DNA of 64,000 bases from an uncultured Acidobacteriota bacterium (GCA_963817635.1 CAWFPR010000020.1:54866-118865), one strand, 5' to 3'; counted from the first letter of the stretch, positions 4,578 through 39,261 are shown. Notes: generated from the letters alone by a model not told the origin. Numbers and translations: made by a program.

Positions 4578-4583
4578 CGCCGG

Positions 4584-22215: not shown

Positions 22216-22264
22216 TCCTCGCGATGCGCACCGGTGACGAGGAGCGCGAGTCGGCAGAGGTTCG

Positions 22265-22360: not shown

Positions 22361-22536
22361 AGGCCCGTCGCATCACCGCCTCAAGGCGGTTACCCTCGCC
22401 TCTGTGCCCTCTTTCACCGCGAGCGGGGCGACGTGTACGACGACATCGGGGTCTGCCAACGGGCGCAACGTATGGACGGCGCGCTCAGCGTTCAGATCGC
22501 CGGACGGAATGGGCTCATCGGCGGTTAGATTGCCTT

Positions 22537-22938
22537 CTATTTCGAGGGCGCGGATTCACCTACAGCTTCATCTGCAGTATCGGCGTCTGCATCAGCTTTG
22601 GTTGCATGAACGCGGCCGTCGATGTGATTGGGTGGAGCGTAGACGGTGTAGATTGTGAGAGGCTCAGTACCGGTGTTGCGGAAATTGTGCTCAGTGCCTG
22701 GAACAACAACCACAACGTCGCCGGGGCCTATTGGGAATTTCCTACCATCTAGCTCCCCTTCTCCGGTTCCCGAGAGAAAGAACAGGGATTGTTCGGTGTA
22801 CTTGTGTGTTTCCTGGCCGACTTCTCCTCCGGGCGGGATACTCATTACGACCAGTTGGCTATTCCTGCCAGTGAATAAAACGCGGCGGAACTTTTCGTTT
22901 TCACGGGCGGCTTTGATGATGTTGGTGTGGTAGCTCAT
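22537..22938 (-). CDS. cupin domain protein
   Basis: Cupin motifs are present (PPGGEVGQETHKYTEQSLFFLSG...GDVVVVVPGTEHNFRNTG). The region is visibly less GC-rich than its surroundings. The ORF also extends to 23037, which would add a TM-like leader. Confidence 0.75.
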   Translation of the reverse strand: MSYHTNIIKAARENEKFRRVLFTGRNSQLVVMSIPPGGEVGQETHKYTEQSLFFLSGTGEGELDGRKFPIGPGDVVVVVPGTEHNFRNTGTEPLTIYTVYAPPNHIDGRVHATKADADADTADEAVGESAPSK

Positions 22939-23196
22939 GTTATTTGGCCGTTTTTTCAGAATAACCAGGATGAGTAGAGAAAGCCCGGAGAGACCAGCTG
23001 CTACACCGGACGTCACGCGCGACGCCAAGAGTTTCATCGCGGCGATCCGGACGCGCCTCTTCTGTAGCCTCCGACGGAGGTGACGGCGCTGAAACCAACG
23101 ATCAGCGCCGTCACGCCCTCGGACTAACCGTATCGACGTTGAGATCCTTCGTGCTCAGATCGTCCGTGGTCATGAGCGCGCGTTCCGCGAGGGTGG

Positions 23197-23352
23197 CTAT
23201 GCCCGGCTGCCCAGTCTGCCTGTCAAGAGCATGATGATCAGCACGAGCAGAATCAGTCCACCAAGACTGCCCCCGATAAGTGGACCACCCAGGTAAAACC
23301 CGCCCCCGCCGAACAGCAACAGCAGGACGATCAGCAAGACTACGATGTTCAT
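23197..23352 (-). CDS. small Gly-rich membrane protein (51 aa, DUF3309-like)
   Basis: Not in the ORF track because it is under 60 aa. ATG with a GGAGG Shine-Dalgarno. Translation: MNIVVLLIVLLLLFGGGGFYLGGPLIGGSLGGLILLVLIIMLLTGRLGSRA. Confidence 0.5.
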   Translation of the reverse strand: MNIVVLLIVLLLLFGGGGFYLGGPLIGGSLGGLILLVLIIMLLTGRLGSRA

Positions 23353-23803
23353 CGCATACCTCCAGGCTCCACGGCAACACGACCGATTGAGGTTTCTCTC
23401 CAGCCTAGAGTGCTCTCACCGTGTGAAGGACGCTCTCTAGTCGTTCGTCGAGCATAATCGGCTCCTCGCGTCGGGAGACATCGATAACCCTCGATCTCAA
23501 CTGTGACGATATCGCGGGGATTCTGGTAGATGCTGTTCCCAATTGCACACGGCCATCGCCGAGACTCGGCCGATGGGGCGCTCGGCGGCATCCTCAACTG
23601 AGCGTTCGGTGCTCGCGCGATGGCCGCCGAGCGCCTGTAGGGCGTACGAACCCACGCCCAAAAATAGATCTGGATGCGAGATCGGTGGAAACGAAGCCGG
23701 GTACGAACTCAATGAGGCAGTCGGGTAACGTTCTGAGGCGAGGCGACACGGGCGGCAAACATGATTGCCGCCGCGCAGCCGCCGATGGTACTATCCGCCT
23801 CTT

Positions 23804-25333: not shown

Positions 25334-25978
25334 TTACCGTCCCACCACTAAGTGCATCGCCGCCTCGGTGGAGACGTGCTCCTTCACTCTGTAGCCGAGC
25401 GCCGGAAGGTCGATGCCTTCGAGCAGGGGCTCGCCTTGTCCGAGCAGGATCGGCGAGATGGCGAGGTGTATCTCGTCAAGTAGTCCGGCCCGCAGATACT
25501 GGCGGATGGTGGCTGCTCCGCCGCCGATTCGCACATCCTTACCTCGAGCGGCCGACCGCGCCTGGCCCAGCGCCGCCTCGATCCCCTCGGTGACGAAATG
25601 GAAGACGGAGCCGCCCTCCATCTCCAGGGGCGGGCGCGCATGGTGGGTCAGGACGAAGACCGGCACATGGTACGGTGGATTGGCTCCCCACCAGCCTTTC
25701 CACTCATAGTCCGGCCAGGGTCCGCGCACCGGTCCGAACATGTTGCGGCCCATGATCCAGGCGCCGAGATTCTCGAACGAGCGTGTCGCGAAGTCGTTGT
25801 CGATGCCGGTCGTCCCGCCGTCTCGCCTCTGGACGTCCCGCTGGAAGATGCGGGTTGGACGGAACCACTGGTGCAGTTGTTCGCCGCCGCGGCCCAGCGG
25901 TTGGTCACGGCCCTGGTTGGGGCCGGCGCCGAAGCCGTCGGCCGACACGCTAAAGGCGTTCACGCGAAGTTTGGACAC
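25334..25978 (-). CDS. dihydrofolate-reductase-like (RibD C-terminal domain) protein
   Basis: GTG start 6 nt after AAGGAG. VSKLRVNAFSVSADGF...MGRNMF...VFVLTHH...IGGGAATIRQYLRAGLLDEIHLAISPILLG is typical of this family. Confidence 0.8.
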   Translation of the reverse strand: MSKLRVNAFSVSADGFGAGPNQGRDQPLGRGGEQLHQWFRPTRIFQRDVQRRDGGTTGIDNDFATRSFENLGAWIMGRNMFGPVRGPWPDYEWKGWWGANPPYHVPVFVLTHHARPPLEMEGGSVFHFVTEGIEAALGQARSAARGKDVRIGGGAATIRQYLRAGLLDEIHLAISPILLGQGEPLLEGIDLPALGYRVKEHVSTEAAMHLVVGR

Positions 25979-26293
25979 GGGCGTCTCCTTGACTGTCGCC
26001 GCATGGAACTCTTGAATCGTGATGTCACACCGGTGGTGCGGCATTGTCACGCGACCATAGGGCTGCCGGCAATGCAGATCCGAATCCTGCCAGGCTGATG
26101 AACGTGCGAGCGGCGTGAAGGCCTCCCATCGATTGCGAATGCTCGACCAGTCTGACGGCTGCATGTCGACCGTCCAGCGGGCGCTGTTCAGGCCGTGGAT
26201 GACACTGCAAGATCAACAATTGAGCGGCAATCACTTTCTGGCCCGCCTCTCGCACGACGCCAGCAACCTACTGGTTTTGTTGAGTTTGCGGAG

Positions 26294-26338
26294 CTGGCTC
26301 CTCGGGCTGGACTCGAACCAGCAACTCTCCGGTTAACA
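26294..26338 (-). repeat. att-like copy A of the tRNA-Asn 3' half (44/45 identical)
   Basis: TGGCTCCTCGGGCTGGACTCGAACCAGCAACTCTCCGGTTAACAG. It has a single mismatch (26325) relative to 35363-35407. Confidence 0.9.
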
Positions 26339-26459
26339 GGTTGATGCAGGCGTAGGTTCTCGGTGGTTCTTCGTTGGTTTAGCCTGTGCCTGCTGAAAAC
26401 TCCGTTCTGGTGGTGGCAGTTGATGTTACGGTCGACGCTCGATACGCTTCTGAATCACG

Positions 26460-27482
26460 ATGGCAGTGTTCTTGTCTCTCTTCCTGAGCCTTCGCACCTG
26501 GGCGCGGTCGCGCGCCGCGCTCCAACTCGAGGTCCTGGCGCTACGCCACCAGCTGCAGGTGTTGCAACGTACGCGGCCCCGGCGGGTGCGACTCTCGACG
26601 TCTGATCGGTCGCTGTGGGTCCTGCTCTCGCGCTACTGGGCCGATTGGCGAACAACCCTGACGATCGTCAGACCGGAAACGGTCGTCGCCTGGCACCGGG
26701 AAGGCGTTCGACTCTGGTGGACGTGGAAAAGTCGGCGCCGGATAGGCCGGCCGCCCGTGCCGGCAGACCTCCGCATGCTGATCCGCACGATGTCGCAGTC
26801 GAATCCTCGCTGGGGCGCACCACGCATTCATGGCGAGCTGCTGAAACTTGGCCTCGACATCTCGCAGGCGACCGTGGCGAAATACATGGTTCGGCAGCGT
26901 CGGCCTCCCTCGCAAACCTGGCGCACGTTCCTCCGCAACCATGTCGGCCAGATTGTGGCGGCTGACTTTTTCGTGGTCCCGACCGCGACCTGCCGCCTGC
27001 TGTTCGTCCTCGTTCTCCTCGCTCACGACCGGCGACGGATCAAGCACGTCGCGGTCACCGCGCATCCGACGGCCGCCTGGACCGCGCAACAGCTGCGGGA
27101 GGCCTTTCCCTGCGACGAGGCGCCCCGATATCTCATTCATGATCGCGATCATGCCTTCGATCACCTGGGCGTCACCGCGCAAGGCATGGGCATTGAGGAG
27201 CTGCTCACCGCACCCCGTTCACCTTGGCAAAATGCCTTCGCCGAGCGCTGGATCGGATCCATCCGGCGGGAATGTCTCGATCACGTCATCGTCCTCAACG
27301 CCCGCGGCCTGCATCACATCGTCACGGCCTACGTCGACTACTACGAACGATCCCGAACGCATCTCTCCCTGAACAAGGACGCACCCGTCCCGCGCGCAAC
27401 CGCCACATCGGCTGACGGTCGCGTGATCGCGATCCCGCAGGTCGGCGGACTGCATCACCGGTACGAACGGCAGGCGGCCTGA
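26460..27482 (+). CDS. DDE (rve/integrase-core) transposase, IS481/IS3-like single-ORF type
   Basis: N-terminal LEVLALRHQLQVLQR and an HTH, then catalytic D (VAADFFVV), D (LIHDRDHAF) and E (QNAFAERWIGSIRRE). Terminal inverted repeats could not be defined by eye. Confidence 0.85.
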   Translation: MAVFLSLFLSLRTWARSRAALQLEVLALRHQLQVLQRTRPRRVRLSTSDRSLWVLLSRYWADWRTTLTIVRPETVVAWHREGVRLWWTWKSRRRIGRPPVPADLRMLIRTMSQSNPRWGAPRIHGELLKLGLDISQATVAKYMVRQRRPPSQTWRTFLRNHVGQIVAADFFVVPTATCRLLFVLVLLAHDRRRIKHVAVTAHPTAAWTAQQLREAFPCDEAPRYLIHDRDHAFDHLGVTAQGMGIEELLTAPRSPWQNAFAERWIGSIRRECLDHVIVLNARGLHHIVTAYVDYYERSRTHLSLNKDAPVPRATATSADGRVIAIPQVGGLHHRYERQAA

Positions 27483-27885
27483 CACCGACGGCTGGGATCC
27501 CAGACGAGCGAACCGTCGATCGCCGCCGATCCGCTTTCGATCACTCTCGTCGACGTACGCCGATTCACGATGAATTCCGACAGCGTTCCGTTCACCGCTC
27601 CACAAACCCCGGCATGCAGCTTACGAACACGCATCGAGCCAATCCGTAAATCGAAAAGAGCGGGTTTTTGGTAGGCACAGCAAGAAAAGGGCAACGTCGG
27701 GAGACCCGTCGGCTCACAGTTCCTGTGTTTGCTGGCACGGGTGCGGGCAGGCCCGAAAGAGATCCGCACCTCCTCGATCATCTTCTTGCGGTCGGCTGGG
27801 GTGAGCGCTCGCGGCCTCGAGCGCATTTCTGAATTGCTGGGAGCGCCACAAGGTCTGCGCCAGCAAGGCACGTCGCGCAATCCCG

Positions 27886-28263
27886 CTACGCCGCTGAACT
27901 GCGAAGGCTGTATGGACGAATCAACACCTCGGCTGAGATGCCAAGGCCTTCGTGCAGCTTGCGGATCATGTCGATGGTGAGCAGGCGACGCCGATTGAGA
28001 ACCTCGGCGACGCGAGCACGACTGCCAAGGAACGGCTCCAGATCCCGGCGAGTCAGCCCGCGGCTTTCCATGTGGTAGAGCAGCGCATCGATCGGGTCTG
28101 GCGGCTCGATTGGTTCGCGCTGCGACTCGTAGTGGTCGACGAGTGTGGTCAGGATCTCAAGCCGGTCACCAGCCGGCGTGCCCGGCTTGGCATCCATCAG
28201 ACGCTCGATTTCCTTGAGCGCGGCACGGTGATCAGCCTTGGTCTTGATTGGGCGAATCTGCAT
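27886..28263 (-). CDS. higA: HigA-type XRE-family antitoxin
   Basis: MQIRPIKTKADHRAALKEIERLMDAKPGTPAGDRLEILTTLVDHYE followed by an HTH (LTRRDLEPFLGSRARVAEVLNRRRLLTIDMIRKLHEGLGI). It lies 8 nt downstream of higB. Confidence 0.85.
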   Translation of the reverse strand: MQIRPIKTKADHRAALKEIERLMDAKPGTPAGDRLEILTTLVDHYESQREPIEPPDPIDALLYHMESRGLTRRDLEPFLGSRARVAEVLNRRRLLTIDMIRKLHEGLGISAEVLIRPYSLRSSAA

Positions 28264-28271
28264 GGAACACC

Positions 28272-28565
28272 TCACACCGTCGCGACATCGATTCGATCGT
28301 ACGCCTGGTGCGTGCCGACGAACCGGATGTAGCACATCCGATACGGATAATTCACGGCGACGACCAGCCTGTACTTGTTCCCGCCGATGTTGAAGATGAC
28401 CCGGTTCTCGCCGACGATGCTTGCGTTGGCGTAGACGCGCTTCACGTCTGCCGGAGAGCCCCAATCGGCCCGACGGACATCGTCGAACCACGCTCGCAAG
28501 GGCTGCTCGGCGTCCGCATGTTTCTCCCAGAACTCTCGCAGCGCACGCCTGGCAACGATACGCAC
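28272..28565 (-). CDS. higB: HigB-type toxin (mRNA interferase)
   Basis: (V)RIVARRALREFWEKHADAEQPLRAWFDDVRRADWGSPADVKRVYANASIVGENRVIFNIGGNKYRLVVAVNY matches the HigB toxin family. GTG start at 28565, with an alternative ATG at 28592. Confidence 0.85.
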   Translation of the reverse strand: MRIVARRALREFWEKHADAEQPLRAWFDDVRRADWGSPADVKRVYANASIVGENRVIFNIGGNKYRLVVAVNYPYRMCYIRFVGTHQAYDRIDVATV

Positions 28566-29108
28566 TTCAAGCCAGTATAGGGATGCTCCCACCTTGGGAG
28601 CAAGCGGTATTGCACCGTCGCTGTGCGTGAGTGCGGCCGAGCCTTCAGGGGCGCGCGACTCGGATATCAGTCGGCCTTGCGGGAGTTGCGAGGCTGAATG
28701 ACGGCGGATGTTTCGCGGCGGTCAGCGCAATTCGTAAGGCTGCGGACCTGCAGGAGGCGCTCGCCGTTGCGAGGACCCGGCCGGCACCTGTGCCAAGGTC
28801 CAGCGGCAGCTAGTCCGATCTCGTATGGACGTTCACCTGATCGCCCGTTCATGCGAGCTTTTCCTGCATTACGACTCGCGAGCATCCGGGTGTCTTTTCG
28901 CGTTTGCAGAACATCCGCCTGAAATGGGCTCGAAAAAAAGCAACGTGAAGAGACGGCGAAAGATTCGTCGTCCGCAAGTGATTGAAAGGATGGCTCGCCG
29001 CACTGGACGATTTCCGCAACTGGATGCTCGGAGGTCCGCCTTCGCCCTGCGGGCTTCGGCGAGACATCTCGCCGTAGCGCACCAGAATTCACCGTGCGCG
29101 GAGGCGGA

Positions 29109-29153
29109 TGGCTCCTCGGGCTGGACTCGAACCAGCAACCCTCCGGTTAACAG
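29109..29153 (-). repeat. att-like copy B of the tRNA-Asn 3' half (45/45)
   Basis: Identical to 35363-35407. It diverges from the tRNA at the next base (G instead of C). Confidence 0.9.
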
Positions 29154-29381
29154 GCGGAACAAGAAGCGGTAGCCGCCCGTTGCCGGGTTGTGCTGGCTGC
29201 TGCGCTCTTGTGCGATGCCCCCTCCGAAACCTCGCGATTTTCGTCCTTCGCGTTGTGTCGGTCTTTGCCTGCGTTTGCGCCTCTTTGTTGCATCCAAAGG
29301 GCAAGAAAAGGGCAACGTACGAAGATAGGGCGGCTCACGCCTCCAGAGAGGCGGCGCGGGACCGCGCTCGTTGCGTGGGCC

Positions 29382-29768
29382 CTACCAAGGTGGCGCGGTC
29401 CGAAGGCGAACGCGGACGACCTCCTCCCGACGCTCAGCCACGAGGACGAATGGCGGCTCGGCCTCGCGGATGGCGCCCTCGATGGCGGCGAGCACATTGA
29501 GCACGAAATCGGACGAACGGTGGCCGGGCCGCAGGTAGACGATGCCGACGAACGCCGCGGCCAGGGCGAGCGAATCGCGGCCGAAGGCGAGGTCGTGCGT
29601 GATCACGACTCGATCCGTTGCGGTAGCGTGGGCGAGCACGTCGGCGTCAACGGCGCCAACGAGTTGTTCCTCGGCGGCAGAGCGGATGTCCCAACCTCGT
29701 TTGCGCAATCCGGCGACGACGGCAGGGCTGATGTTCTCGTCGGCCAGGACGCGCAGCGCCGTGGTCAT
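29382..29768 (-). CDS. DUF5615 (Mut7-C/PIN-like) putative toxin
   Basis: MTTALRVLADENISPAVVAGLRKRGWDIRSAAE...VITHDLAFG is typical of DUF5615. It has an ATGA overlap with the upstream DUF433 gene. Confidence 0.8.
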   Translation of the reverse strand: MTTALRVLADENISPAVVAGLRKRGWDIRSAAEEQLVGAVDADVLAHATATDRVVITHDLAFGRDSLALAAAFVGIVYLRPGHRSSDFVLNVLAAIEGAIREAEPPFVLVAERREEVVRVRLRTAPPW

Positions 29769-29998
29769 GCAGGAATCGTCAACTGCCACGTGCGCTCGGC
29801 CTTGAGCGCGTCCGCTGCGTAGCGAAACGCCGCCGCGAGCCCCTCCGGGGCGAGCTGAGGGTAGTCCGCCAGGATCTCGGCCTGCGTGGCACCACTCGCC
29901 GCAAGTTCCAGGAGGAACTCCACGCTCAATCGTGTTCCTCGGACACACGGTTTGCCGCCCAGGATGCCGGGGACGGAGACGATGAGATCGTCAGCCAT
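29765..29998 (-). CDS. DUF433 putative antitoxin
   Basis: MADDLIVSVPGILGGKPCVRGTRLSVEFLLELAASGATQAEILADYPQL contains the DUF433 signature GGKP.I.GTR..V.. Confidence 0.8.
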   Translation of the reverse strand: MADDLIVSVPGILGGKPCVRGTRLSVEFLLELAASGATQAEILADYPQLAPEGLAAAFRYAADALKAERTWQLTIPA

Positions 29999-30453
29999 GA
30001 CAAAGCCAGTGTAGCGCAGGTGAGGTGGTCGGGCGAGACGGGAGGCGGCGTGTCGTTGTCGTCGCCCTTGGTCACATCCGGGGCCTGTTTTTATCCGTCC
30101 GCACTCAGGTGGGGGCGTCGTCAGCCCTGTCCGCGCGCACGTTGCGGCACGATGACCATCGACGACCTCGGTGACACCTCGCATCCGCGCACGGCGGCGG
30201 GAGCTTGCGCCACAATCATCCGACGTCGCCGCAGCCGAGCGAAGCCGGAGGACGCCTGTGCCGCCGTTCAGCAACTGCCATGGTGGTATGACAACCCACT
30301 CGGTTGCCCGCAGATACGCGCTGTTCCTGGACTCCGCGCCGCGAGCATCCGGCTGCTGTTTCGCGTGTGCGAAACGTCCGCATGAAAAGGGCTCGAAAAA
30401 GGGCAACGTGAAGGGACGGCGAAAGACTCGTCGTCTGTAGGCTGTTGAAAAGA

Positions 30454-30498
30454 TGGCTCCTCGGGCTGGACTCGAACCAGCAACCCTCCGGTTAACAG
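30454..30498 (-). repeat. att-like copy C of the tRNA-Asn 3' half (45/45)
   Basis: Identical to 35363-35407. As with copy B, it is followed by GCGGAACA(A/G)GAAGCGGTAGCCGCCCG. Confidence 0.9.
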
Positions 30499-30637
30499 GC
30501 GGAACAGGAAGCGGTAGCCGCCCGGTGCCGGTGGTTGCCGTGGCTTGCCGGAACGCGGGTTTCCCTCTGTAACGGCAGGCGATTTTTCGCTTTCGCTTTG
30601 TGTCGCACGTTGCCGCTGTTTGCGGCTCTTTGTGGCA

Positions 30638-30979
30638 TCAAAAGGGCAAGAAAAGGGCAACGTCATCGCGGTGAGCCGCTCTAACGCGGTCGCGGGTGTC
30701 ATAGCTCACCGTGTGCGCGCCCGCACCTGCCTTTTCGCTTGTGCGAAACCACTGGTAGAGCGATCGCTGTGCCCCGCCGGCCGTCGTGCGAAAATCATGG
30801 TGGCACCGTGAACAGCGGGTGGGAAGTGCGTTCCCTCCTCCGTAGGTCCATTTCATACCGGCGAAGGTTGCCGTGTTCACGAAGACCAACTTCTGGCAAC
30901 GCGGGCAGCGAAGTCGCGTCAACAAGACAGCACACGCGAGAACGACAGACAATCCCAGCCACAGTAGCCGTTCGTCCAC
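30638..30979 (-). CDS. small TM + zinc-ribbon protein (hypothetical)
   Basis: A GTG start gives VDERLLWLGLSVVLACAVLLTRLRCPRCQKL...RCSRCHHDF (one TM helix, two CxxC pairs). The longer ORF-track version begins inside a duplicated FG-GAP fragment. Confidence 0.35.
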   Translation of the reverse strand: MDERLLWLGLSVVLACAVLLTRLRCPRCQKLVFVNTATFAGMKWTYGGGNALPTRCSRCHHDFRTTAGGAQRSLYQWFRTSEKAGAGAHTVSYDTRDRVRAAHRDDVALFLPF

Positions 30980-31010
30980 TTCGAAGGCCAACGCCAGTCC
31001 CCCGAAGGTC

Positions 31011-31230
31011 CGGCCGTCGCCGTCGTAGTCGCCGGGCGTCGGCACGTGCGTCCCGCCCGCGAAGCCGAAGTCGATCGCATACTGCGTGGCGCCGCTACTT
31101 GACAGGATCCAGCAGCCGGCATTGAAAATTCGTGAAGGCCGCGGGGTCGGCCGTTTCGTCGCCGTCGTAGCACGTCCAGCTCCACTCGCGCACGGAGGTC
31201 GCGCCGGTCGCGCTCAGCCGGAGGTACCCG
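31011..31230 (-). pseudogene. degenerate duplicated fragment of the FG-GAP/VCBS gene
   Basis: The first 46 nt are identical to 34239-34284, followed by recognisable but decayed similarity to 34285-34481. The fragment contains in-frame stops. Confidence 0.55.
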
Positions 31231-31315
31231 TAATAAGAGGCGGAAAGTCTGACGACCGCACCAGGCTCCTGAAGCGCAAGTCAAGCGCGGGAACCACCCG
31301 AGCGGTGCCGCCGAG

Positions 31316-31924
31316 TCACGAACCCCGTTTCTTTCTTCCTAGCAAAAGACGTATCTCGCGGGACAACTGCTTGTCAGTCCGCATGTCCTCAAGCACCTCT
31401 CGGGCCATGGGCTCCTTCGAGCGGGCGAGCGCCGACAGGAGCGCCAACCGGTTCTCGCCGACTGCAGGGTCCCGAACCAACCGGATCACCTGATCGAGGA
31501 CGTCGTCGGTCGCCGCGCCGCTCAGGGCACACGCGAGCGCCCACTTGATGTTCAAGCGTCCCCCATCCGGCTCTCGACGGAAGTAGGCGAGCAACACGTC
31601 CCAGGCCCATGACGCCTCGGGAACGGCCAGTGCGCGAGCGATGCCCTCGCGGACCTCCGGTGGATAGTCCCGCTCAAAATGCTCGAGTAGCACCGGCACC
31701 GCCGCAGGATACCGTGCCTTGGTGTTCACGAGATCCCAGACGGATTTCACGAGCACGCCAACGGCGCCCAGCGCCTCGATCAAGGGCGCTTCGGCGATCC
31801 GCAACCGTTCCCATAGGGCGCGACGGGACGCCTCCCGCGCGGCGACCGTTGCCTGGTGTGCAGGATCCGCCGCGAGTCGATCCATAAATTCCTGAGTGCG
31901 CTGTAGAGATTTCGACTTGGTCAT
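31316..31924 (-). CDS. putative immunity protein (all-alpha, HEAT-like)
   Basis: The ATG at 31924 overlaps the toxin TGA as ATGA. The 202-aa helical-repeat-like sequence (AVPVLLEHFERDYPPEVREGIARALA...) fits its position immediately after a polymorphic-toxin gene. Confidence 0.55.
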   Translation of the reverse strand: MTKSKSLQRTQEFMDRLAADPAHQATVAAREASRRALWERLRIAEAPLIEALGAVGVLVKSVWDLVNTKARYPAAVPVLLEHFERDYPPEVREGIARALAVPEASWAWDVLLAYFRREPDGGRLNIKWALACALSGAATDDVLDQVIRLVRDPAVGENRLALLSALARSKEPMAREVLEDMRTDKQLSREIRLLLGRKKRGS

Positions 31925-33042
31925 GGTACCCAAGGAAAGAGGCGAATGTTGATAAGATGTGCGTCAATCGCCGACTGCAACGGTCCGGATAGAGACGTGG
32001 CGATCTTCCCGGTCGCCGGATTCATTCTCACCCAGAGGTCAACCGAAGTCCCAGTCTGTTTCGCGTACTGCACTAGGTCCCGCAATTGAAGCGTGTATGC
32101 CTGATACGCGACGTTCTTGACTTCGGTGATCAGCCCCGGCAACATCCCATCGGGGATTCTGAATCGACCGCTAACCAGAATCTTGACCTTGTCACCGATA
32201 TTCGCAAGTCCCCCTACTATGCGCTCGCCGGCCGCACCGACCGCTCCTGGCGACATCGGTACCATCCCGAGCTTGAGGCAACCGTTTTCGACCGTGCAAT
32301 CGACATTTTTGCCGTCGATTTTTACGAGGACCTTGCCTTCATTCGCCTTTGACAACGCGCCGTTCTCAAAATGAGAGACGACCGACTGGAAGAAAGCGCT
32401 GTCCGTCTGTTCAAGGTACTGCTGAAGGCCTTCCCAGATGTTCGAGGGCATTCCCTCGGCGTAGCCCTGCTGCTTGGCCTGCGCACGCGCGTTGCCGAAG
32501 TCGAACCCATAGCCGCCCTCCGCGGGCGCCCAGAAAACCCGCGCCCCACCGCAGTCGAGGAAGCTGAACTCGGCGTTGCAACCAAACGACGGGCCCTCCG
32601 CCAGAAGCCCCGAGGAATCGGAGATTGATACAGGCGAGTTCAGCGCATAGGCATACCGATTCCACCGCTGCGGCTCGAAGATTCCGGCATAGACGGGATC
32701 GCTGGTGCTGAAGCGTCCCGTGCGCACCTGATACGACCGCGCGCCGGCCGCATCGAGCCCCGCCTCGCCGTCCCGAAAGAGCCCCGCGAAGCGCCGGTCC
32801 GGCAGCCCCGTCGCGCCGGACAGCTCCTCCCCGAACGGCCCGTAGTCCATCCGCCCGAGGATGGTGCCGTTCGCGTCGAACACCACGCGCACCGACCCGA
32901 GCGCGTCGAGCGCATAGTCCTCCACCTGCTCGCTCTGCGCAGAGGCGGGCGGCGCGCTGCCGAGGATCGCCGCCCCGATCGCGCACGCGCGCACCAGCCC
33001 GCGCCACCAGCCCCGCGTCGTCCGCCGCGCCCGCGCCCTCAT
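31921..33042 (-). CDS. short secreted RHS-core protein with a C-terminal PD-(D/E)xK nuclease-like toxin domain
   Basis: Signal peptide MRARARRTTRGWWRGLVRACAIGAAILGSAPPASAQ. YD/RHS core end: YGPFGE...ARSYQVRTGRFSTSDPV...NRYAYALNSPVSISDSSGL. The tail contains RIPDG...ITEVKNV...TLQLRD. Confidence 0.8.
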   Translation of the reverse strand: MRARARRTTRGWWRGLVRACAIGAAILGSAPPASAQSEQVEDYALDALGSVRVVFDANGTILGRMDYGPFGEELSGATGLPDRRFAGLFRDGEAGLDAAGARSYQVRTGRFSTSDPVYAGIFEPQRWNRYAYALNSPVSISDSSGLLAEGPSFGCNAEFSFLDCGGARVFWAPAEGGYGFDFGNARAQAKQQGYAEGMPSNIWEGLQQYLEQTDSAFFQSVVSHFENGALSKANEGKVLVKIDGKNVDCTVENGCLKLGMVPMSPGAVGAAGERIVGGLANIGDKVKILVSGRFRIPDGMLPGLITEVKNVAYQAYTLQLRDLVQYAKQTGTSVDLWVRMNPATGKIATSLSGPLQSAIDAHLINIRLFPWVP

Positions 33043-33716
33043 CGCGCCACCACCGTGACGGCGCCCTCGAGCGTGAAGCCCGACACCTGCACGGCGCTGC
33101 CCGCCGCCGCGTGCACGCCCGCGTACCCGTCCAGCTCGCCAGGGGCAATGGGCACGACCGCGACAGCCCGCCCGTTGACGAGGCACGTCGCCGTGGTGGC
33201 GCGCACCCGCACCTCGAGCCGATCGAGCGGGGCGGGGGCGGACTCCGGGTCGAGCGCCCCGCGCCGGCGCGGCGGTCTGGCGGTCGCGAGCGGCGCCCAC
33301 CGCTGCGCACTCACGCGCCGCTGGATGGCGATCGTCCCGTCGGGACGGATCAGCAGCGCGAGCGCCAGGGGCTGCGCCTCGGTGCCGCCGACGATCAGTC
33401 CGTACGCCGCCGTCGGACTGGCCTCCGGCAGGACCTCGAAGAGCGCCGACACCGCAAAGGTCCCCGCCACCGTCCACTGCGGCCGGACGAGCGTCAGGTC
33501 GGTGGCCGGCGTCAGGCGCGTCGCCGGGCCGTGCGCCTCGAGCGCCACCGCCAGCGGCACGGCGACACCCGCACTCGCCAGCGCCCACTCGGAGGCGGGC
33601 CCGATCGGGTCGGCCGCCCCTGCGAACGACTGCCGAATCCCCGCGTGCTGCGCGGCGAGCGGCACGCTCAGCGCCAGCACGCCCACGCTCCACAGGACGC
33701 CACGTGTCGTCACCAC
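33039..33716 (-). CDS. secreted hypothetical protein (beta-sandwich-like)
   Basis: GTG start after GGAGG, signal peptide VVTTRGVLWSVGVLALSVPLAAQ. ATGA overlap with the toxin gene. No domain is firmly recognised. Confidence 0.55.
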   Translation of the reverse strand: MVTTRGVLWSVGVLALSVPLAAQHAGIRQSFAGAADPIGPASEWALASAGVAVPLAVALEAHGPATRLTPATDLTLVRPQWTVAGTFAVSALFEVLPEASPTAAYGLIVGGTEAQPLALALLIRPDGTIAIQRRVSAQRWAPLATARPPRRRGALDPESAPAPLDRLEVRVRATTATCLVNGRAVAVVPIAPGELDGYAGVHAAAGSAVQVSGFTLEGAVTVVAR

Positions 33717-34555
33717 CGCCCACCTCCTTCCAGCCGAGACCGCTCGCTGGCGGGGGGCGCCGGATGGCGCCACCCCTCGCGGACGTCGCAGGCGAGTGGC
33801 GTCGGCGGACTGCCGGTGGCGACGAGCGCCGCCGGCGCGCTGCACGCCATCCCGGGCGGCCGCCAGCCGCCGTCGGGACAGCACGTCCCACCCCCGAGCG
33901 CGGCAAACGGATCGCTGCCGGCGCACACCGGCGGGGGCGGCGGGGGTGGGGGCGGCGGCACGGGGGGCGGGCCGAACGGGGCGAGCACCGGCACCGCCCC
34001 CGACACTGCGGCAGACCCCAACGAGACGAACGCGACGGTGCCGGTGCTGCTCGGCAGGACAGAGACGCCGCCGGCGCCGGCAGCGTAGTAGGCCGGATCC
34101 GTCCGGCCATCGCCATCGTAGTCGGCCGGCACGGGGATCCCGCCCGACGCGCCGAAGCTCAGACGATACGACACCCCCGTCGAACTGGGGCGCACATACC
34201 AGCCCCCGTCGGCCGGATAGAAGAAGGCCGGATTGGTGCGGCCGTCGCCGTCGTAGTCGCCGGGCGTCGGCACGTGCGTCCCGCCGGGGAACCCGAAGTC
34301 GATCGCATACTGCGTGGCGCCGCTACTGGGCAGGATCCACCAGCCGGCATTGAACGCCGTGAAGTACGCGGGGTCAGCCGTGCCGTCGCCGTCGTAGTCG
34401 CCCGGCACCGGGATGCTCGTCGTCCAGGTCCAGCCCCACTCGCGCACGGAGGTCGCGCCGGTGGCGCTCAGCCGGATGTACCAGTAGTACGAATTCGCGC
34501 CGCGGCGGAACACCGCCAGGTCCGCGCGTCCATCACCGTCGTAGTCGGCGGGCAC
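33710..34555 (-). CDS. FG-GAP/VCBS-repeat protein, apparently 5'-truncated
   Basis: Four P.DYDGDG(R/T)(A/T)D units followed by a poly-Pro linker. The frame is open upstream to a stop near 34640 with no start codon or signal peptide. The ORF-track start is a GTG. Confidence 0.7.
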   Translation of the reverse strand: MPADYDGDGRADLAVFRRGANSYYWYIRLSATGATSVREWGWTWTTSIPVPGDYDGDGTADPAYFTAFNAGWWILPSSGATQYAIDFGFPGGTHVPTPGDYDGDGRTNPAFFYPADGGWYVRPSSTGVSYRLSFGASGGIPVPADYDGDGRTDPAYYAAGAGGVSVLPSSTGTVAFVSLGSAAVSGAVPVLAPFGPPPVPPPPPPPPPPVCAGSDPFAALGGGTCCPDGGWRPPGMACSAPAALVATGSPPTPLACDVREGWRHPAPPASERSRLEGGGRW

Positions 34556-34766
34556 GGGCTGATCGATGGGGTCGCCGCCCCACGCGTCCCCCGAGGCCGG
34601 CGCCTGGCACGACGGCGCGATCGTCCAGCCGCCCGCCGGTCAGTCGCTCCGCGAGGTGCGCGTGCACAACCCCGTCGGCGGGAACGCACGATCTCGCGCA
34701 GAGCCCGACGCGGAGGTCTGGGCACACAGAGCGTGCGGGTTCGCGTGATCGACGAGCACCGCGCCG

Positions 34767-35054
34767 TCAGCCCCGCGTGCCCAGCGGCGAATCGATCGGC
34801 CCGAAATGGCGCGTCGTGAACGCGCGGCCCGACCCAGACTTCAGGTACCGCTCGAAGCGCACGGCGTGTGCCTCGCTCGGGAACTCCAGCGACACCACAA
34901 GGGACCACGGCCGGTGGCGCGTCGTATGACCCGACGGCCCGTCGTTGTGCCACTCGAGGCGTCCGCGGAGATCGCTGGTGAGCCCGACGTAGTGACGCGA
35001 CGGATCGGCGTCGCTGCGCAGGATGTAGACGATTCGTTTCTCGATGCCGTGCAT
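34767..35054 (-). CDS. GIY-YIG nuclease family protein
   Basis: IVYILRSDADPSRHYVGLTSDLRGRLEWHN...AVRFERYLKSGSGRAF matches the small UPF0213-type GIY-YIG proteins. Confidence 0.85.
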   Translation of the reverse strand: MHGIEKRIVYILRSDADPSRHYVGLTSDLRGRLEWHNDGPSGHTTRHRPWSLVVSLEFPSEAHAVRFERYLKSGSGRAFTTRHFGPIDSPLGTRG

Positions 35055-35362
35055 GCCTCGGGGGACGCAGGGATCGCGCCAGCACCAGCATCGGGCGTTT
35101 CCTTCGACGATCGTTCGGATTGTGGCGATTCTTGCGACGGACCTTGGCGTTCGACCTGGCAGGTAACGCGAACCGGCGAATCCGCCTTGGCGGGCTGGCG
35201 ACTCGATGTGCAGGCAGGGCTCCGGCGAGACAGTCTTCGCACCTCCCCGACCGAGCCTGCCTGGCCGAAGCTCACAGAATCGATGGCAGTGGGGATGCGG
35301 TCCGCCTTCGCCCCGTCGGGGCTACGGCGAGACATCCTTCGCACGTGATCATGAGCGAAGGC

Positions 35363-35437
35363 TGGCTCCTCGGGCTGGACTCGAACCAGCAACCCTCCGG
35401 TTAACAGCCGGATGCTCTGCCATTGAGCTACCGAGGA
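35363..35437 (-). tRNA. tRNA-Asn (anticodon GTT), CCA encoded
   Basis: The reverse complement TCCTCGGTAGCTCAATGGCAGAGCATCCGGCTGTTAACCGGAGGGTTGCTGGTTCGAGTCCAGCCCGAGGAGCCA folds as a cloverleaf. Acceptor stem TCCTCGG/CCGAGGA, D stem GCTC/GAGC, anticodon stem TCCGG/CCGGA with loop CTGTTAA, T stem GCTGG/CCAGC. Confidence 0.95.
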
Positions 35438-35503
35438 ACGGGGTGGGACTGAACGTTTGATCTTACCCTCCGGAGGCCCGATCGCGCAATACGCGGCGGC
35501 GGA

Positions 35504-35923
35504 TTACGCGTTCGGCCTCCGGCGGCTCGGATACTCGACGATCTGGTCCCACTCCATCGCACTGGACCGGGCGACGACGGCGATGACGGGGTCCGTCTGG
35601 CTCAGGTTCAGCACTTCGTGCGGCACGCCGGGTTCGATGAAAATGAAGTCGCCGGCTTCGTGCTCCACGCTGTGCGTCAGGTCCGGGCCGTACTCGTGCC
35701 GCACGCGCCCCTCGAGGATGTACAGCATCACCTCGAAGTCCACGTGAATGTGCGCGAACGCCACGGCGCCCGGCGGCACCACGGCCACGTTCATCGAGAG
35801 CTCTTTCGAGCCGCAGTTCCGGCCCGACAGGCCCAGCTTGTACCGGATCCCGTTCCACTCGCGTGAGAGCCCCGCGCCGCGCACCCACGCGAGCCCTTCG
35901 TGGCGTTCCGCCCGATCGGTCAT
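35504..35923 (-). CDS. cupin domain protein
   Basis: PPGAVAFAHIHVDFEVMLYILEGRVRHEYG...EAGDFIFIEPGVPHEV contains both cupin motifs. Confidence 0.8.
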   Translation of the reverse strand: MTDRAERHEGLAWVRGAGLSREWNGIRYKLGLSGRNCGSKELSMNVAVVPPGAVAFAHIHVDFEVMLYILEGRVRHEYGPDLTHSVEHEAGDFIFIEPGVPHEVLNLSQTDPVIAVVARSSAMEWDQIVEYPSRRRPNA

Positions 35924-35938
35924 ACCGCGATCCCGGCG

Positions 35939-36379
35939 CTAGCGCGCCTCGGCTTCGACCTCGATCGCCAGCGTGCCGCGAAGCGCGTTCGAGATGGGGC
36001 ACTTCCCTTCCGCTTCGCGCGCGACCTCCGGGAACTGCGACTTCTCGATGCCCTGGAGGCCCTCGGCGACAACCTTCAGCTTCGACGTCGTCAGCTTGAT
36101 CCCCGCCTCGGTCTTGTCCGCGATGACCGTCGCGCTCACGATCGTGCGCGCCGCGCTCCCGCCCTTGCGGCCAATCGTCGCGTTCAGCGCCATCGCATAA
36201 CACGCCGCATGCGACGCCGCCATCAGCTCTTCGGGACTCGTATGCCCGTCAGGCTCGCCGATGCGCGCGGGAAACGTCACCGGCAGCGAAAACGCCCCCG
36301 TCCCCGCCTTCGCCGTCCCCTTCCCCTCCATGACCGAGCCCGCCCAGTCAACCGTTACCGTACGAGAAAACGTCGCCAT
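35939..36379 (-). CDS. osmC: OsmC family peroxiredoxin
   Basis: MATFSRTVTVDWAGSVMEGKGT...TSPEELMAASHAACYAMAL...EGKCPISNAL carries both conserved Cys motifs of OsmC. Confidence 0.9.
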   Translation of the reverse strand: MATFSRTVTVDWAGSVMEGKGTAKAGTGAFSLPVTFPARIGEPDGHTSPEELMAASHAACYAMALNATIGRKGGSAARTIVSATVIADKTEAGIKLTTSKLKVVAEGLQGIEKSQFPEVAREAEGKCPISNALRGTLAIEVEAEAR

Positions 36380-36387
36380 CAGCACTC

Positions 36388-36502
36388 CAATCTGCAATCG
36401 CAATCGCAATCGCAATCTGCAATCTGCAATCTGCAATCTGCAATCTGCAATCGCCACTCGGCAATCCGTCAATCTGCACTCTGCAATCTTCAGTCTGCAA
36501 TC
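36388..36502. repeat. 6/7-nt tandem micro-array (AATCGC x3, AATCTGC x5 plus degenerate units)
   Basis: Read directly: caatctgcaatcgcaatcgcaatcgcaatctgcaatctgcaatctgcaatctgcaatcgcc... It fills the spacer between the upstream gene's stop and the osmC start. Confidence 0.9.
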
Positions 36503-37133
36503 ATTTCCTGCCCTTGGCCGTCACCGTGAGCTGCACAATCACGCCCACCATGCCGAGCACGAGCCACGCCACCGCGTCCCACTTCGTCGCCGGAAGAGGG
36601 TCGAGGGGATAAACGCGGTACACCGCGTGCGGTGCCGCAGCCCCGGCGATCCGGCTGCCCATCAGCGCGGCCGCACCGACAATGACCGTCTGCGCGCCGC
36701 CGAACGCCGTGGCCGCGATGATGACGTAGCGCTGCACCATCAGAGCGCCGAGCGCGCCCAGGATCGACAGCACGATCACCGCAATCAGTCCCGGTTCGTG
36801 CCCGAACGCCGCCCACCCCACGTTGGCAACGAGCGCACCGATCCCGGCACCAATCAGGGCCACGCCGACGAAGTAGGCCGCCACCATCAGGAGCGCGCCG
36901 ACCACCCCTCCCGCAACCGCCGCGCCGATCACCCACAACGTGTGGTCCGTCCCCATCGCGGAACTCGCCAGCAGCGCGCCCAGGATGAATCCGTAAATCC
37001 CGAGGACGACGCGGAACACCCGGTAGCCGGCAAAGCAGGCCAGAAGTCCACCGACCACGAGCACGATGGCGGCCGGCACCTGGAAAGAGGCAGGGAGCAT
37101 AGCCTGCCGATTATATGATGGCTGCGTGTTCAT
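36501..37133 (-). CDS. multi-pass membrane protein (DUF4203/TMEM198-like)
   Basis: About 6 Gly/Ala-rich TM helices (IVLVVGGLLACFAGY, VVLGIYGFILGALLA, WVIGAAVAGGVVGALLMVAAYFVGV...). Starts at MNTQ (37133) or MLPA (37100). Confidence 0.6.
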   Translation of the reverse strand: MNTQPSYNRQAMLPASFQVPAAIVLVVGGLLACFAGYRVFRVVLGIYGFILGALLASSAMGTDHTLWVIGAAVAGGVVGALLMVAAYFVGVALIGAGIGALVANVGWAAFGHEPGLIAVIVLSILGALGALMVQRYVIIAATAFGGAQTVIVGAAALMGSRIAGAAAPHAVYRVYPLDPLPATKWDAVAWLVLGMVGVIVQLTVTAKGRK

Positions 37134-37190
37134 CGACGCCCTCGACTGGCGCCGCCGGCTCGCCAAGACAAGCCTGAGGAGCCGCGCGGC

Positions 37191-38224
37191 GTGACCGGAC
37201 CCGGCCAGCCGCGGCGCCGGTTCACCGCCGTCGGACTGCTGACCGCGGGCGCGGGTCTCGCGCTCTTCGTCTGGCTGGTCTGGCGTGTCGGACCGGCCGA
37301 AATCTGGACCGGGTTCCGGCAGGTGGGCTGGGGGTTCGGGTGGATCCTGCTGCTCGGCGGCCTCCGCTTCGCGGCCCGCGCCTTCGCCTGGACGCTGTCG
37401 TTCGATCCGCCCCACCGCCTTCGCTGGTCAGACGCCTTCGTCGCCGTCGTGTCAGCGGCGACGCGCTCGGCAACCTGACGCCGCTCGGCCCGATCGTCGG
37501 GGAGCCGGCGAAGATCGCCTGCGTGCGCAGGCACGTGCCCGTCGCGCCCGCGGTGACGGCCCTCGCCATCGAAAACGTGATCTACACGCTCTCGGTGGCC
37601 GCGATTCTCGCCGCAGGGACGATCGCGCTGCTCTTCAGCGTCCGCCTCGAGGCGCCCGTGCGGGAGGTCAGCGAAGTGACGCTGGCGGCGATCGTGGCGA
37701 TGTTCGGCGTCGCCGGATGGCTGCTGTGGACGCGTCCCGCGCTCATCAGCCGCGCACTGCCGGGACGGCTTCGCCGATCGCCAAAGCTGACGGCGCGGCT
37801 CGACAAGCTGCACACGCTCGAGCAGCAAATCTATACGTTCGCGTCGCGCCGCCGTGCGGTCGTGCTGCCGATCATCGCGGCCGAGCTGGCGTTCCATGCC
37901 CTGGGCGTGGTCGAGGCACACATCACGCTGTGGATGATCCTCGGCGCACCGCCTCCCCTGCTCACCTCGTTCATCCTCGAATCGACCAACCGGCTCATTC
38001 AGGTCGTCTTCAAGTTCATCCCGCTGCAGATCGGCGTCGGAGAGGCCGCGTCCGGCTTCTTCACGACGATTCTTGGCCTTGGCGCCACGCCCGGCGTGAC
38101 GCTGTCGCTCGTCCGCAAGGCGCGGATGGGCGCGTGGTCGCTCATCGGCATGGCCTTCCTCGTCTACCAGGGCCTGAGCGCCCGGACCATCCTCGAACAG
38201 GCCGACGTCAGCGCCGGGAAGTGA
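37191..38224 (+). CDS. flippase-like (LPG-synthase TM domain family) membrane protein, interrupted by one frameshift near 37450
   Basis: The N-terminal 87 aa are in one frame (...LRWSDAFVAVV) and the rest is in +1 (SGDALGNLTPLGPIVGEPAKI...). The junction rebuilds the family motif G(D/E)A.N..TP...GEP.K. Confidence 0.7.
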
Positions 38225-38513
38225 CGCTCCCCGCTGCCCGCTCCCCGCAGTCCGCTGATCCGCTGTCCGCTGTCCGCCAGGCCCGCGAGTTGCATGCTCA
38301 GGCCGAGCCAAGCCCGCACGAACCGGGGCCCCCGAAGTCGCCCGGCAGTAATTCAGGCGTAAGCTGGACTGGAGTCTGCTCATTTCGCAACGTCCGGGCG
38401 TGTGCGAGCGTCCAAGGCTGAAGGCGACAGTATTGCAGAGCCCGGCCTGTGGACACGTCGGGGGGCGGCGGCAAGTTCACGCTCCTGCAGTCTGAAAGGG
38501 ACTCGAGGTTGTC

Positions 38514-39261
38514 GTGACAGCAAATCCGTCGATCCCGGTAAGGGACGCCGTTATCCTCGCGGCAGGAAACGGCGATCGATTCCAGACCCGCACCCGCCGA
38601 TCCAAGCTCCTTCAGCCGGTTCTCGGCCAGCCGCTCATCCTCCGCACACTGACCACCGCTGCCGACGCCGGCGTGACCGCCGTGCACGTCGTCCTGGGCT
38701 ATCAGGCAGCGGAGGTGCGCGCCGCCATCGAGCGTGGCGCGCCGCCGGGCGTGTCCCTGCACTTCGCGGTGAACCCCGACTGGCATCTGGAGAACGGCCT
38801 GTCGGCGTGCGCGGTGCGCGACGCGTTCCAGGATCGCCGCTTTGCGCTGCTGATGGGCGATCACCTGTTCGAGGCCGCGGTGCTGTCAGGGTTGCTGCGC
38901 GCGCACATCCGGGACGGCGAGTCGATCCTGGCGGTCGACACGCGGCCCGCTCCGCCGGAAGTGGCCGCTGAGGCAACGAAGGTCACACTCGAGGGGGATC
39001 GGATCACCGCGATCGGCAAGGACCTCGTGGCGTTCGACGCCCTGGACACCGGGCTGTTCGTCTGTTCGCCGCTGCTGTTCGGCGCGCTGGACGAGGCCTG
39101 CGCCGCGGGCGACACGACGCTGAGCGGCGGCATCCGCCGGCTGGCCGCGCGCGGCCTGATGCGCGCGCGTGACATCGGCGACGCCGAGCTGGTGCGACAT
39201 CGACACGCTCGCCGATCTCGAAACCGCCGAGGCCCTGCTCGTCGAACCTGAACCCGCATGA
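38514..39261 (+). CDS. NTP-transferase (MobA-like/sugar- or inositol-phosphate nucleotidyltransferase), frameshift near 39190
   Basis: AVILAAGNGDRF...KLLQPVLGQPLI. The last 23 aa (CDIDTLADLETAEALLVEPEPA*) are in the +1 frame and end in an ATGA overlap with the next gene. Confidence 0.75.

Follow-up and report, generated by a model that had tools for sequence, protein, structure and literature searches.

A tandem array of integrase-less islets at a tRNA-Asn gene of an uncultured acidobacterium, probably remnants of tyrosine-integrase islands

Introduction

How does a tRNA gene come to be followed by several copies of its own 3' half when no integrase gene lies among them? This question is raised by a 64,000-nt stretch of DNA from an uncultured Acidobacteriota bacterium (GCA_963817635.1 CAWFPR010000020.1:54866-118865), here called the window, in which small islets are stacked beside a tRNA-Asn gene. 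A reading made from this DNA without database searches (the sequence-only reading) had described three such islets, delimited by copies of the tRNA 3' half, as the products of serial site-specific integration into one tRNA gene. Our comparisons with related genomes and metagenome contigs suggest that the array is probably a tandem accretion of integrase-less remnants flanked by attachment (att) sites, similar to cis-mobilizable elements (CIMEs), and that these remnants come from tRNA-Asn-targeting tyrosine-integrase islands in a Vicinamibacteria-type acidobacterium.

Copies of the tRNA-Asn 3' half delimit at least four segments

A single tRNA gene, tRNA-Asn(GTT), was found across the window (ARAGORN; Rfam RF00005, 70.7 bits; Table 1). 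The part of this gene that runs from the first base of the anticodon loop through the encoded CCA is a 45-mer (TGGCTCCTCGGGCTGGACTCGAACCAGCAACCCTCCGGTTAACAG on the plus strand) that is present four times within the 64 kb, in one shared orientation, in a search tolerating three mismatches. No matches are expected by chance (0 in 100 dinucleotide-preserving shuffles), and the copies are not scattered elsewhere through the window. The three copies outside the tRNA gene, here called blocks, all start in the anticodon loop (CTGTTAA) and end with CCA, and the tRNA fragment has the same orientation as the intact gene. For the two middle blocks (30454 and 29109), the complete identity claimed in the sequence-only reading was confirmed, and their similarity to the tRNA stretches to 50 nt with one mismatch. 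The leftmost block has the claimed 44 of 45 matches, and its position is 26295-26339, one base away from the 26294-26338 given earlier.

A fifth, divergent copy lies at about 28992-29036. In a base-by-base reading, about 24 of its first 33 positions match, and it stands in the same register as the flank that precedes the 30454 block. We refer to this copy as the variant block. It splits the distal part of the array and leaves a micro-segment between itself and the block at 29109, so that there are at least four segments. The stacking reported in the sequence-only reading is thus supported by both repeats and arms, whereas the count of three has to be raised.

The position of the breakpoints is informative as well. 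Identity to the tRNA starts in the anticodon loop, and attR keeps four of the five anticodon-stem pairs as an imperfect inverted repeat. Anticodon-type att sites are the canonical and commonest class for tRNA islands (PMC4383910). Together with this classification, the two observations indicate that the crossover point probably lies in the anticodon loop.

The blocks are bordered by shared arms

A homologous arm of 165 nt, the P arm, precedes the blocks at 30454 and 29109 in the sense of the tRNA. It opens with the motif ACGTTGCCCTTTTCTTGCCC, at which the homology begins sharply; upstream of the motif the similarity collapses. Over these 165 nt, the P arms of islets 2 and 3, of contig L002 and of the attR of the related contig L082 show 67-77% pairwise identity. 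CIMEs keep attL and attR sites related to those of an autonomous element; in islets 2 and 3 such a relation is seen on the attR side, and the P arm of islet 1a is broken by an insertion sequence (IS). Islet 1a keeps the motif at 27678-27697, but the IS has replaced the rest of this arm and the block-proximal 145 nt or so are missing. The blocks that adjoin these arms are 100% conserved, whereas the arms themselves differ by 23-33%.

The motif or a close variant of it has five copies in the window, with none expected by chance. All five are located in the array in one orientation, and both ends of islets 1a and 2 retain a copy. The 23-nt motif is a putative arm-binding site of the integrase.

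The tRNA-proximal ends of the islets carry other arms. An A-type arm of about 200 nt is common to islets 2 and 1a (77-85%); in islet 2 it aligns with 28834-28990 at this identity and with L081, another related contig, at 82%. The same type of arm is also found after attR blocks in L178 and L190. The micro-segment consists of a B-type arm that resembles 35295-35362 beside the tRNA and is 85% identical to L211 1025-1104, where it comes after a variant block. For attL, the A and B arms resemble the P' arm of L082 and L125, two contigs with an integrase, in the short motif alone, and the spacing is 44 nt versus 53 nt.

No recombinase was detected in the array

The region 26101-35500 was translated in six frames, with stops replaced by X, and searched against Pfam at E<=1. 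No match to Phage_integrase, Resolvase or Recombinase was found in this region; serine recombinases were not searched for outside the array. A tblastn search of the whole window with the L082 family integrase (E<=10) matched only the C-terminal tail of the query to the blocks, with no remnant of the catalytic domain. A regular expression for box II of tyrosine recombinases, a heuristic that by inspection fits the L082 integrase, matched nothing anywhere in the window. By gene annotation, six-frame Pfam and tblastn, the islets contain neither integration nor transfer genes. The array thus lacks a tyrosine or serine recombinase, as the sequence-only reading had reported.

Close relatives are polymorphic at the tRNA gene

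The best matches to the window come from Acidobacteriota of the Vicinamibacteria/Vicinamibacterales. The cupin gene beside the tRNA has homologues with 96% and 95% identity on the long contigs L081 and L082, which are collinear with window positions 35352-46100 at 85-90% nucleotide identity. This similarity ends 7-11 nt past the 3' end of the tRNA, and the DNA beyond is different. Judged from these alignments, the divergence is an insertion polymorphism, at least at the tRNA-proximal boundary. We rejected the more distant cupin homologues (L083, L084, L087, L088) as comparators, since they lack both synteny and a neighbouring tRNA-Asn gene.

In L082, the tRNA is directly followed by a tyrosine recombinase gene of the Phage_integrase family, accompanied by an excisionase-family HTH_17 gene. 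About 8.5 kb beyond the tRNA, L082 has a P arm and block that are 81% identical to window 29109-29331, and past that block lies a 0.95-kb MNT/HepT islet that ends in a variant block. The L081 tRNA has a GIY-YIG gene behind it, as in the window (73%); next come a block in degraded form, an A arm at 82% identity, part of the window's DUF433 gene (94.5%) and the pair Gp49/HTH_37. Serial site-specific integration at one tRNA gene, the central claim of the sequence-only reading, is thus upheld by repeats that run from the anticodon loop to CCA, by the arm shared with the L082 element and by relatives that are polymorphic at this site.

The right flank has two further features. A 7-nt tandem repeat (CAATCTG, 16.7 copies, 36388-36502) just upstream of the OsmC coding start coincides with the only gap in the otherwise collinear L081 alignment and could act as a spacer prone to slippage. 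The bacterial small signal recognition particle RNA is encoded in the conserved part of this flank (44592-44690, minus strand, 71.5 bits).

The arm motif identifies an integrase-bearing family

An exact scan of Joint Genome Institute (JGI) metagenome contigs with the 23-nt motif ACGTTGCCCTTTYSTTGCCCTTT matched at least 120 soil contigs. Two geometries were seen among the matches listed. In 37-43 contigs, a block is located at +165 after the motif, and none of these has an adjoining integrase. In 13 contigs, tRNA-Asn is followed after 53 nt by the motif, and at each of these 13 listed tRNA-side junctions the opposite strand encodes an L082 integrase homologue (57-83% identity) whose frame reads into the tRNA. 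One of the contigs, L125, holds a complete element of 11.2 kb with 45/45 terminal repeats, a 423-aa integrase and HTH_17. Its cargo includes a STAND/NACHT-like NTPase and an AAA_15/AAA_21 ATPase (4135-6408 and 10063-11286) and is defence-like. In some contigs the same arm is paired with other tRNAs. The motif had no matches in viral contigs and hence there is no sign that the family is phage-borne.

The family integrase frame crosses the P' arm into the tRNA block, with the tail ..GSSGWTRTSNPPVNS.., in L082 (10498-11424), in L125 (313-1584) and at 11 other attL loci. This means that integration alters the last residues of the enzyme. In L082, the part that resembles an N-terminal arm-binding domain is in another frame, due to a frameshift or an assembly error.

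Decay within the family is seen directly. L129 contains a 2.9-kb islet between two blocks in which the integrase is cut down to its last 60 codons or so, and the L164 integrase is split into three frame-shifted pieces. Small islets that lie between blocks, lack an integrase and contain a toxin-antitoxin (TA) pair were also found, with RES/Xre (L116, 1.3 kb), RelE/HTH (L139) and the MNT/HepT pair of L082; the Gp49/HTH_37 pair of L081 sits in an equivalent position. The DUF433/PIN cassette of islet 2 has 91.7% nucleotide identity to copies in L211-L213. There its P arm is 78% identical, and its other side consists of a variant block and a B arm, not an A arm.

The variant block (CCAGTTGCGGAAATCGTCCAGTGCGGCGAGCCA) is kept in many unrelated contigs (window 28992-29024; L001 9238-9277 and 12009-12043; L082 20049-20084). 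Copies were found in L001, L003, L004, L005, L024 and L082, and another form occurs in L211 and L212. In L165, L179 and L200, it takes the attL position adjoining a family integrase. As far as sequence comparison can tell, the variant block is conserved across many contigs and no product of random decay, and it behaves like a second att core. We also considered it as a fragment of a protein-coding gene (the frame '..WLAALDDFRNW..'). This was rejected: the L211 copy contains an indel and the window version stop codons, both noted by eye, which speaks against coding constraint.

Origin of the array

The reading that we prefer, accretion of islands followed by loss of their integrases, builds directly on the repeats and arms, the absence of a recombinase, the polymorphism of relatives at the tRNA, the presence of the same arm in a relative that has an integrase, and the decayed integrases elsewhere in the family. 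The order of events in the array would be the following. The tyrosine integrase and excisionase of a family of small islands would recombine attP, carrying the tRNA segment from the anticodon loop to CCA, with the 3' half of tRNA-Asn. Each integration would restore the tRNA and deposit a 45-nt copy at the island's far end, and repeated integration into the tRNA or into an existing copy would stack the islands head to tail. Later deletions would then remove the integrase, the excisionase and most of the cargo. What is left over would be att-flanked, recombinase-less, CIME-like remnants, including one 'micro' remnant of 72 nt, and the cargo kept in them would be mainly TA pairs (HigBA, DUF433/PIN), along with an Rhs-tip toxin and the gene that probably confers immunity to it. 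Selection acts most strongly against the loss of TA pairs, which are therefore expected to persist longest; toxin/immunity pairs should likewise withstand deletion. The most distal islet is also the most damaged, with an IS in its arm, one block with 44 of 45 matches and another that is the variant. If another locus of the genome supplied a family integrase, the islets might still be excised.

Several observations weigh against accretion and decay. Alignment to related genomes revealed the insertion polymorphism at the tRNA (L081/L082) that the sequence-only reading had anticipated, but an empty tRNA-Asn site was not found among the relatives compared. The distal chromosomal flank was not identified, and a RibD_C gene beyond the last block looks horizontally spread. 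The tRNA-proximal A and B arms of the window differ from the integrase-adjoining arm of L082 and L125; neither was seen adjoining an integrase in the contigs compared, and in L190 ordinary large genes come after the A arm. Another block was present within 3 kb at only one of the nine listed attR junctions that have at least 3 kb of upstream sequence, which means that stacks of very small islets are not the norm in this family. Lastly, no integrase trace is left in any islet of the window, so that decay in place is read from the relatives and not seen here. The description of the islets as decayed remains of related elements, made in the sequence-only reading, is supported by the intermediates in relatives, and for the islets themselves decay in place is the favoured but unproven course.

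The missing integrase traces would also fit mini-islets that never had an integrase. They would then be non-autonomous TA cassettes with arms, captured and reshuffled in trans by a family integrase encoded elsewhere, and tRNA-Asn would be a platform for cassettes. We regard this as unlikely, although it has several points in its favour: the layout of arm, TA pair, P arm and block recurs with different TA families (islets 1a and 2 of the window, L082, L116, L139), islets 1a and 2 hold the motif in the same orientation at both ends, and the DUF433/PIN cassette (92% nucleotide identity) is joined to an A arm in the window and to a variant block and B arm in L211-L213, which suggests exchange at blocks. 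However, neither a free attP form nor a second insertion site was found for any mini-islet, and small islets are a minority of the family members. Moreover, the P arm of the L211 cassette is 78% identical whereas its cargo is 92% identical, as neutral drift of a vertically inherited remnant would give, and integrase stubs exist as intermediates of decay (L129, L164). From the relatives, deletion in place is favoured over capture in trans. A broader version of the cassette idea, in which the tRNA-Asn and variant-block site of soil Vicinamibacteria serves a tyrosine-integrase family to stockpile and reshuffle small units, mostly single TA pairs that never had their own integrase, seems rather doubtful to us. 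If true, it would describe a cassette platform that is functionally analogous to an integron and built on tRNA-derived att sites with long arms.

Explanations without site-specific integration fare much worse. Tandem direct repeats with partly similar flanks might also arise by local tandem duplication, by unequal crossing-over of the tRNA 3' region or by decay of a tRNA cluster. This is highly improbable, as the copies enclose unrelated cargo (HigBA, DUF433/PIN, Rhs module), every copy starts at the same tRNA position and ends at CCA, the arms match those at the att sites of elements with an integrase in other genomes, and these arms have diverged next to fully conserved blocks. Repeats can also mis-join contigs, and the window is an assembly from an uncultured organism, so chimeric joins have to be considered. 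Here, however, the repeats are only 45-210 nt long and the arms differ, coding frames run uninterrupted through the islets, and comparable arrays are present in independent assemblies (L081, L082, L116, L129, L139). We therefore give an assembly artefact very little credence.

Cargo genes and insertion sequence

The coordinates of the array and its genes are collected in Table 1. The annotation confirmed addiction and competition modules as the main cargo, as claimed in the sequence-only reading, and TA-only islets recur in L082, L116 and L139.

Table 1. Features of the tRNA-Asn array in the window.
Feature	Position	Strand	Details
Intact tRNA-Asn(GTT), CCA encoded	35363-35437	-	Target gene and attL core; ARAGORN, Rfam
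45-mer in the tRNA itself	35363-35407	-	0 mismatches
Block copy 3, islet 3/islet 2 junction	30454-30498	-	45/45; 50 nt at 98% to tRNA
Block copy 2, islet 2/micro-segment junction	29109-29153	-	45/45
Variant block	28992-29036	-	tRNA sense ..CCAGTTGCGGAAATCGTCCAGTGCGGCGAGCCA; conserved core ~28992-29024; in register with conserved flank
Block copy 1, farthest from tRNA	26295-26339	-	44/45
Islet 3	30499-35362		4.9 kb
Islet 2	29154-30453		1.3 kb
Micro-segment	29037-29108	-	72 nt; B-type palindromic arm with CGGCGAGAyGTCTCGCCG, between block 2 and variant block
Islet 1a	26340-28991		2.65 kb, of which 1.3 kb is IS
P arm of islet 3	30499-30663	-	165 nt, motif 30644-30663 to block; alignment with L082 attR, islet 2, L002
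P arm of islet 2	29154-29318	-	Motif 29299-29318; arm and block 81% to L082 18872-19095
A-type arm, tRNA-proximal end of islet 2	30250-30453	-	Motif variant ACGTTGCCCTTTTTCGAGCC at 30390-30409
A-type arm, tRNA-proximal end of islet 1a	28790-28991	-	Motif variant at 28927-28946
B-type arm, tRNA-proximal end of islet 3	35201-35362	-	Motif GGGCTnCGGCGAGACA twice, 35217-35234 and 35319-35336
GIY-YIG nuclease gene	34767-35054	-	Small, stand-alone, first after tRNA; 95 aa; six-frame scan 5.4e-10
Competition module of islet 3	31316-34555	-	
FG-GAP repeat protein	33710-34555	-	
Unknown open reading frame (ORF)	33039-33926	-	High third-position GC
Rhs-tip toxin	31921-33042	-	373 aa; Rhs_assc_core and Tox-REase-7
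HEAT-repeat ORF	31316-31933	-	Downstream of Rhs-tip toxin
Duplicate of FG-GAP fragment fused to small Cys-rich ORF	30638-31284	-	Distal end of islet 3; ORF without Pfam match
DUF433 antitoxin-like and DUF5615/PIN_10 nuclease genes	29382-29998	-	DUF433 29765-29998, DUF5615/PIN_10 29382-29768; 4-nt overlap
HigBA, cargo of islet 1a	27886-28592	-	HigB 28272-28592 (HigB_toxin 1.7e-31); HTH_3 antitoxin 27886-28263
IS, IS481/IS3-like	26384-27680	+	~1.3 kb; inside P arm of islet 1a, abuts motif 27678-27697
rve_3/HTH_21 transposase	26460-27482	+	Pfam

In islet 1a, the DDE transposase and HigBA named in the sequence-only reading were both recovered by Pfam (rve_3 and HigB/HTH_3, respectively). The six-frame scan places the toxin gene first and the HTH_3 ORF directly downstream on the same strand. 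A toxin-first order is typical of HigBA, and by sequence the pair fits the definition of a HigB toxin upstream of an HTH antitoxin. The 1.3-kb islet 2 has the DUF433 and DUF5615/PIN_10 genes as its sole genes, again in agreement with the earlier description.

Islet 3 was said to carry an Rhs toxin cassette and a GIY-YIG gene. Both a toxin and the GIY-YIG gene are present, the latter with a copy at 73% identity in the same position in L081. Rhs polymorphic toxins consist of an RHS-repeat shell, an Rhs-associated core that ends in DPxGL and a variable C-terminal toxin, followed by a downstream immunity gene. In the 373-aa protein, the core was found (Rhs_assc_core TIGR03696, aa 67-146, 2.7e-14) but RHS repeats were not detected: only the tip is present, behind an N-terminal hydrophobic stretch that by eye resembles a signal peptide. 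We therefore prefer the term Rhs-tip toxin over Rhs cassette. The HEAT-repeat ORF is, from its position, the likely immunity gene.

Islet 3 is probably composite. A segment of about 230 nt from the FG-GAP gene recurs 3.2 kb further downstream (31007-31238 versus 34235-34492, 88-100% in pieces). The two copies enclose the unknown ORF, the Rhs-tip toxin and the HEAT ORF, and the enclosed module looks as though it had been inserted into, or had recombined with, an FG-GAP gene. The GC content reaches 0.77-0.80 within islet 3 (32800-34200), whereas islets 1 and 2 have 0.60-0.66 and the flanks about 0.65-0.72. In the array, scans for promoters and terminators and an Rfam scan by E-value detected no signal over background, and Rfam returned the tRNA alone.

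The IS in islet 1a is bounded by terminal inverted repeats of 17 nt (82%) at 26384-26400 and 27664-27680. Its transposase matches the NCBIfam models for IS3 (81 bits) and IS481 (74 bits), both far below the cutoffs. No target-site duplication was seen at the IS, and part of the host arm is missing. Similar rve_3-type IS or IS-like breaks in or beside att arms were observed at four independent loci (window 26384-27680, L002 5587-6639, L125 11947-12297 and L211 at about 2465), and att arms may be preferred IS targets. We also considered whether the rve transposases beside the arms in the window and L002 are the true recombinase of these elements. This was rejected: the two share just 32% identity, the copy in the window is bounded by inverted repeats of its own, and a DDE enzyme would not create 45-nt repeats that match a tRNA.

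The distal boundary of the array

Just beyond the last block lies a RibD_C/dihydrofolate-reductase-like gene (25334-26164). It has 80-96% nucleotide identity (>90% in most cases) to genes in 19 species-level metagenome-assembled genomes (MAGs) of Acidobacteriota (L001-L018, L024). The similarity is limited to the gene and at most about 130 nt upstream, and the flanks are unrelated. An exact look-up of the RibD_C protein of the window gave no match. In L001, the gene is bracketed by two variant blocks, and a block or variant block in the same orientation is present within 10 kb of it in 8 of 20 loci. On this evidence RibD_C looks like widely exchanged cargo. It was rejected as a left marker for an empty site, as with 91-96% identity but without conserved flanks in the 19 MAGs it is not a stable chromosomal marker.

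The prolyl oligopeptidase gene (19885-22215) was rejected as a left marker too, since its one match (95.8%) has unrelated flanks. In this match, 19892-22206 aligns with a gene on L090 whose neighbours are entirely different, which makes it the second single gene to be near-identical without conserved flanks. The truncated C-terminus of a second rve_3 transposase (..IPEVGGLHHRYERAA*) lies at 22260-22360 and is followed by a stretch of small ORFs with low GC content (22400-23600, 0.52-0.60), and the mosaic region may reach well to the left of the array. As RibD_C is nearly identical across MAGs with unrelated flanks and is near blocks in many loci, the hotspot may also extend to the left of 26295, and the block at this position is not established as its true edge.

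Comparison with known systems

In streptococci, a three-step scheme has been described in which site-specific integration is followed by decay to an att-flanked CIME without recombination genes and by further integration beside this CIME (PMC5704250). Accretion and decay in these bacteria yield CIMEs of 1.2-13 kb and gene-less microCIMEs of 130-220 bp, and the most decayed units are the farthest from the target (PMC5704250, PMC7563491). The 72-nt micro-segment and the damaged distal islet found here match this pattern. Examples of CIMEs and of tandem accretion at target-gene 3' ends are the ICESt1/ICESt3-related elements of S. thermophilus and S. salivarius and the tRNA-Lys islands of S. agalactiae (PMC5704250, PMC7563491). 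Like streptococcal CIMEs, the islets of the window are att-flanked, lack integration genes, are arranged head to tail at one target, fall within the 1.2-13 kb size range, include a gene-less 'micro' unit, are most damaged farthest from the target, and have integrase-bearing relatives that use the same site. Unlike these CIMEs, they are found in an uncultured acidobacterium and show no conjugation or relaxase genes. In addition, an integrase is missing from every unit of the stack, which leaves cis-mobilization without a resident partner. Their tRNA-proximal arms are also unlike those of the relatives that have an integrase, and TA pairs dominate the cargo.

The array also resembles the islands found by Islander and TIGER (PMC4383910), with an intact tRNA gene, displaced 3' fragments in direct orientation that run from the anticodon loop to the 3' end and, in the relatives of the window, a tyrosine integrase adjoining the tRNA. 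Islander requires an integrase for each unit and a length of at least 2 kb, and tandems of three or more made up only 4 of the 3919 islands in its survey (PMC4383910). Unlike these islands, all units of the window lack an integrase and two are shorter than 2 kb. Pipelines of this type would therefore not report them, and integrase-based island finders would miss the whole stack. The integrase gene of the IntP type in myxophage Mx8 extends across attP, as it is cited in PMC4383910. The integrase frames of L082, L125 and 11 other attL loci, which run through the P' arm into the tRNA block, are similar to Mx8 IntP, for which a change of the last residues on integration is likewise reported. This feature belongs only to the relatives and not to the integrase-less window.

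The array yields an att system, with core (45 nt), P arm (165 nt) and arm motif (23 nt) precisely mapped, for an abundant uncultured soil lineage. A literature search gave no description of Vicinamibacter with integrases and genomic islands. The integrases of L082 and L125, together with their defined att sites, could become site-specific tools for Acidobacteriota. The recurring TA-only mini-islets are a natural test of whether addiction modules outlive their carrier elements or are captured as cassettes.

The superintegrons of Vibrio are cassette arrays that also carry TA cassettes. Like integron arrays, the mini-islets are very small and promoter-poor units, many with TA pairs, that are separated by copies of a tyrosine-recombinase site. 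Unlike integron arrays, they have no IntI-type integrase, attI or attC hairpins, and their boundaries are tRNA-derived blocks with arms of 165 nt. Accretion followed by decay to CIMEs is a process that is already well described in Firmicutes; what is new here is a well-defined case in an unstudied phylum.

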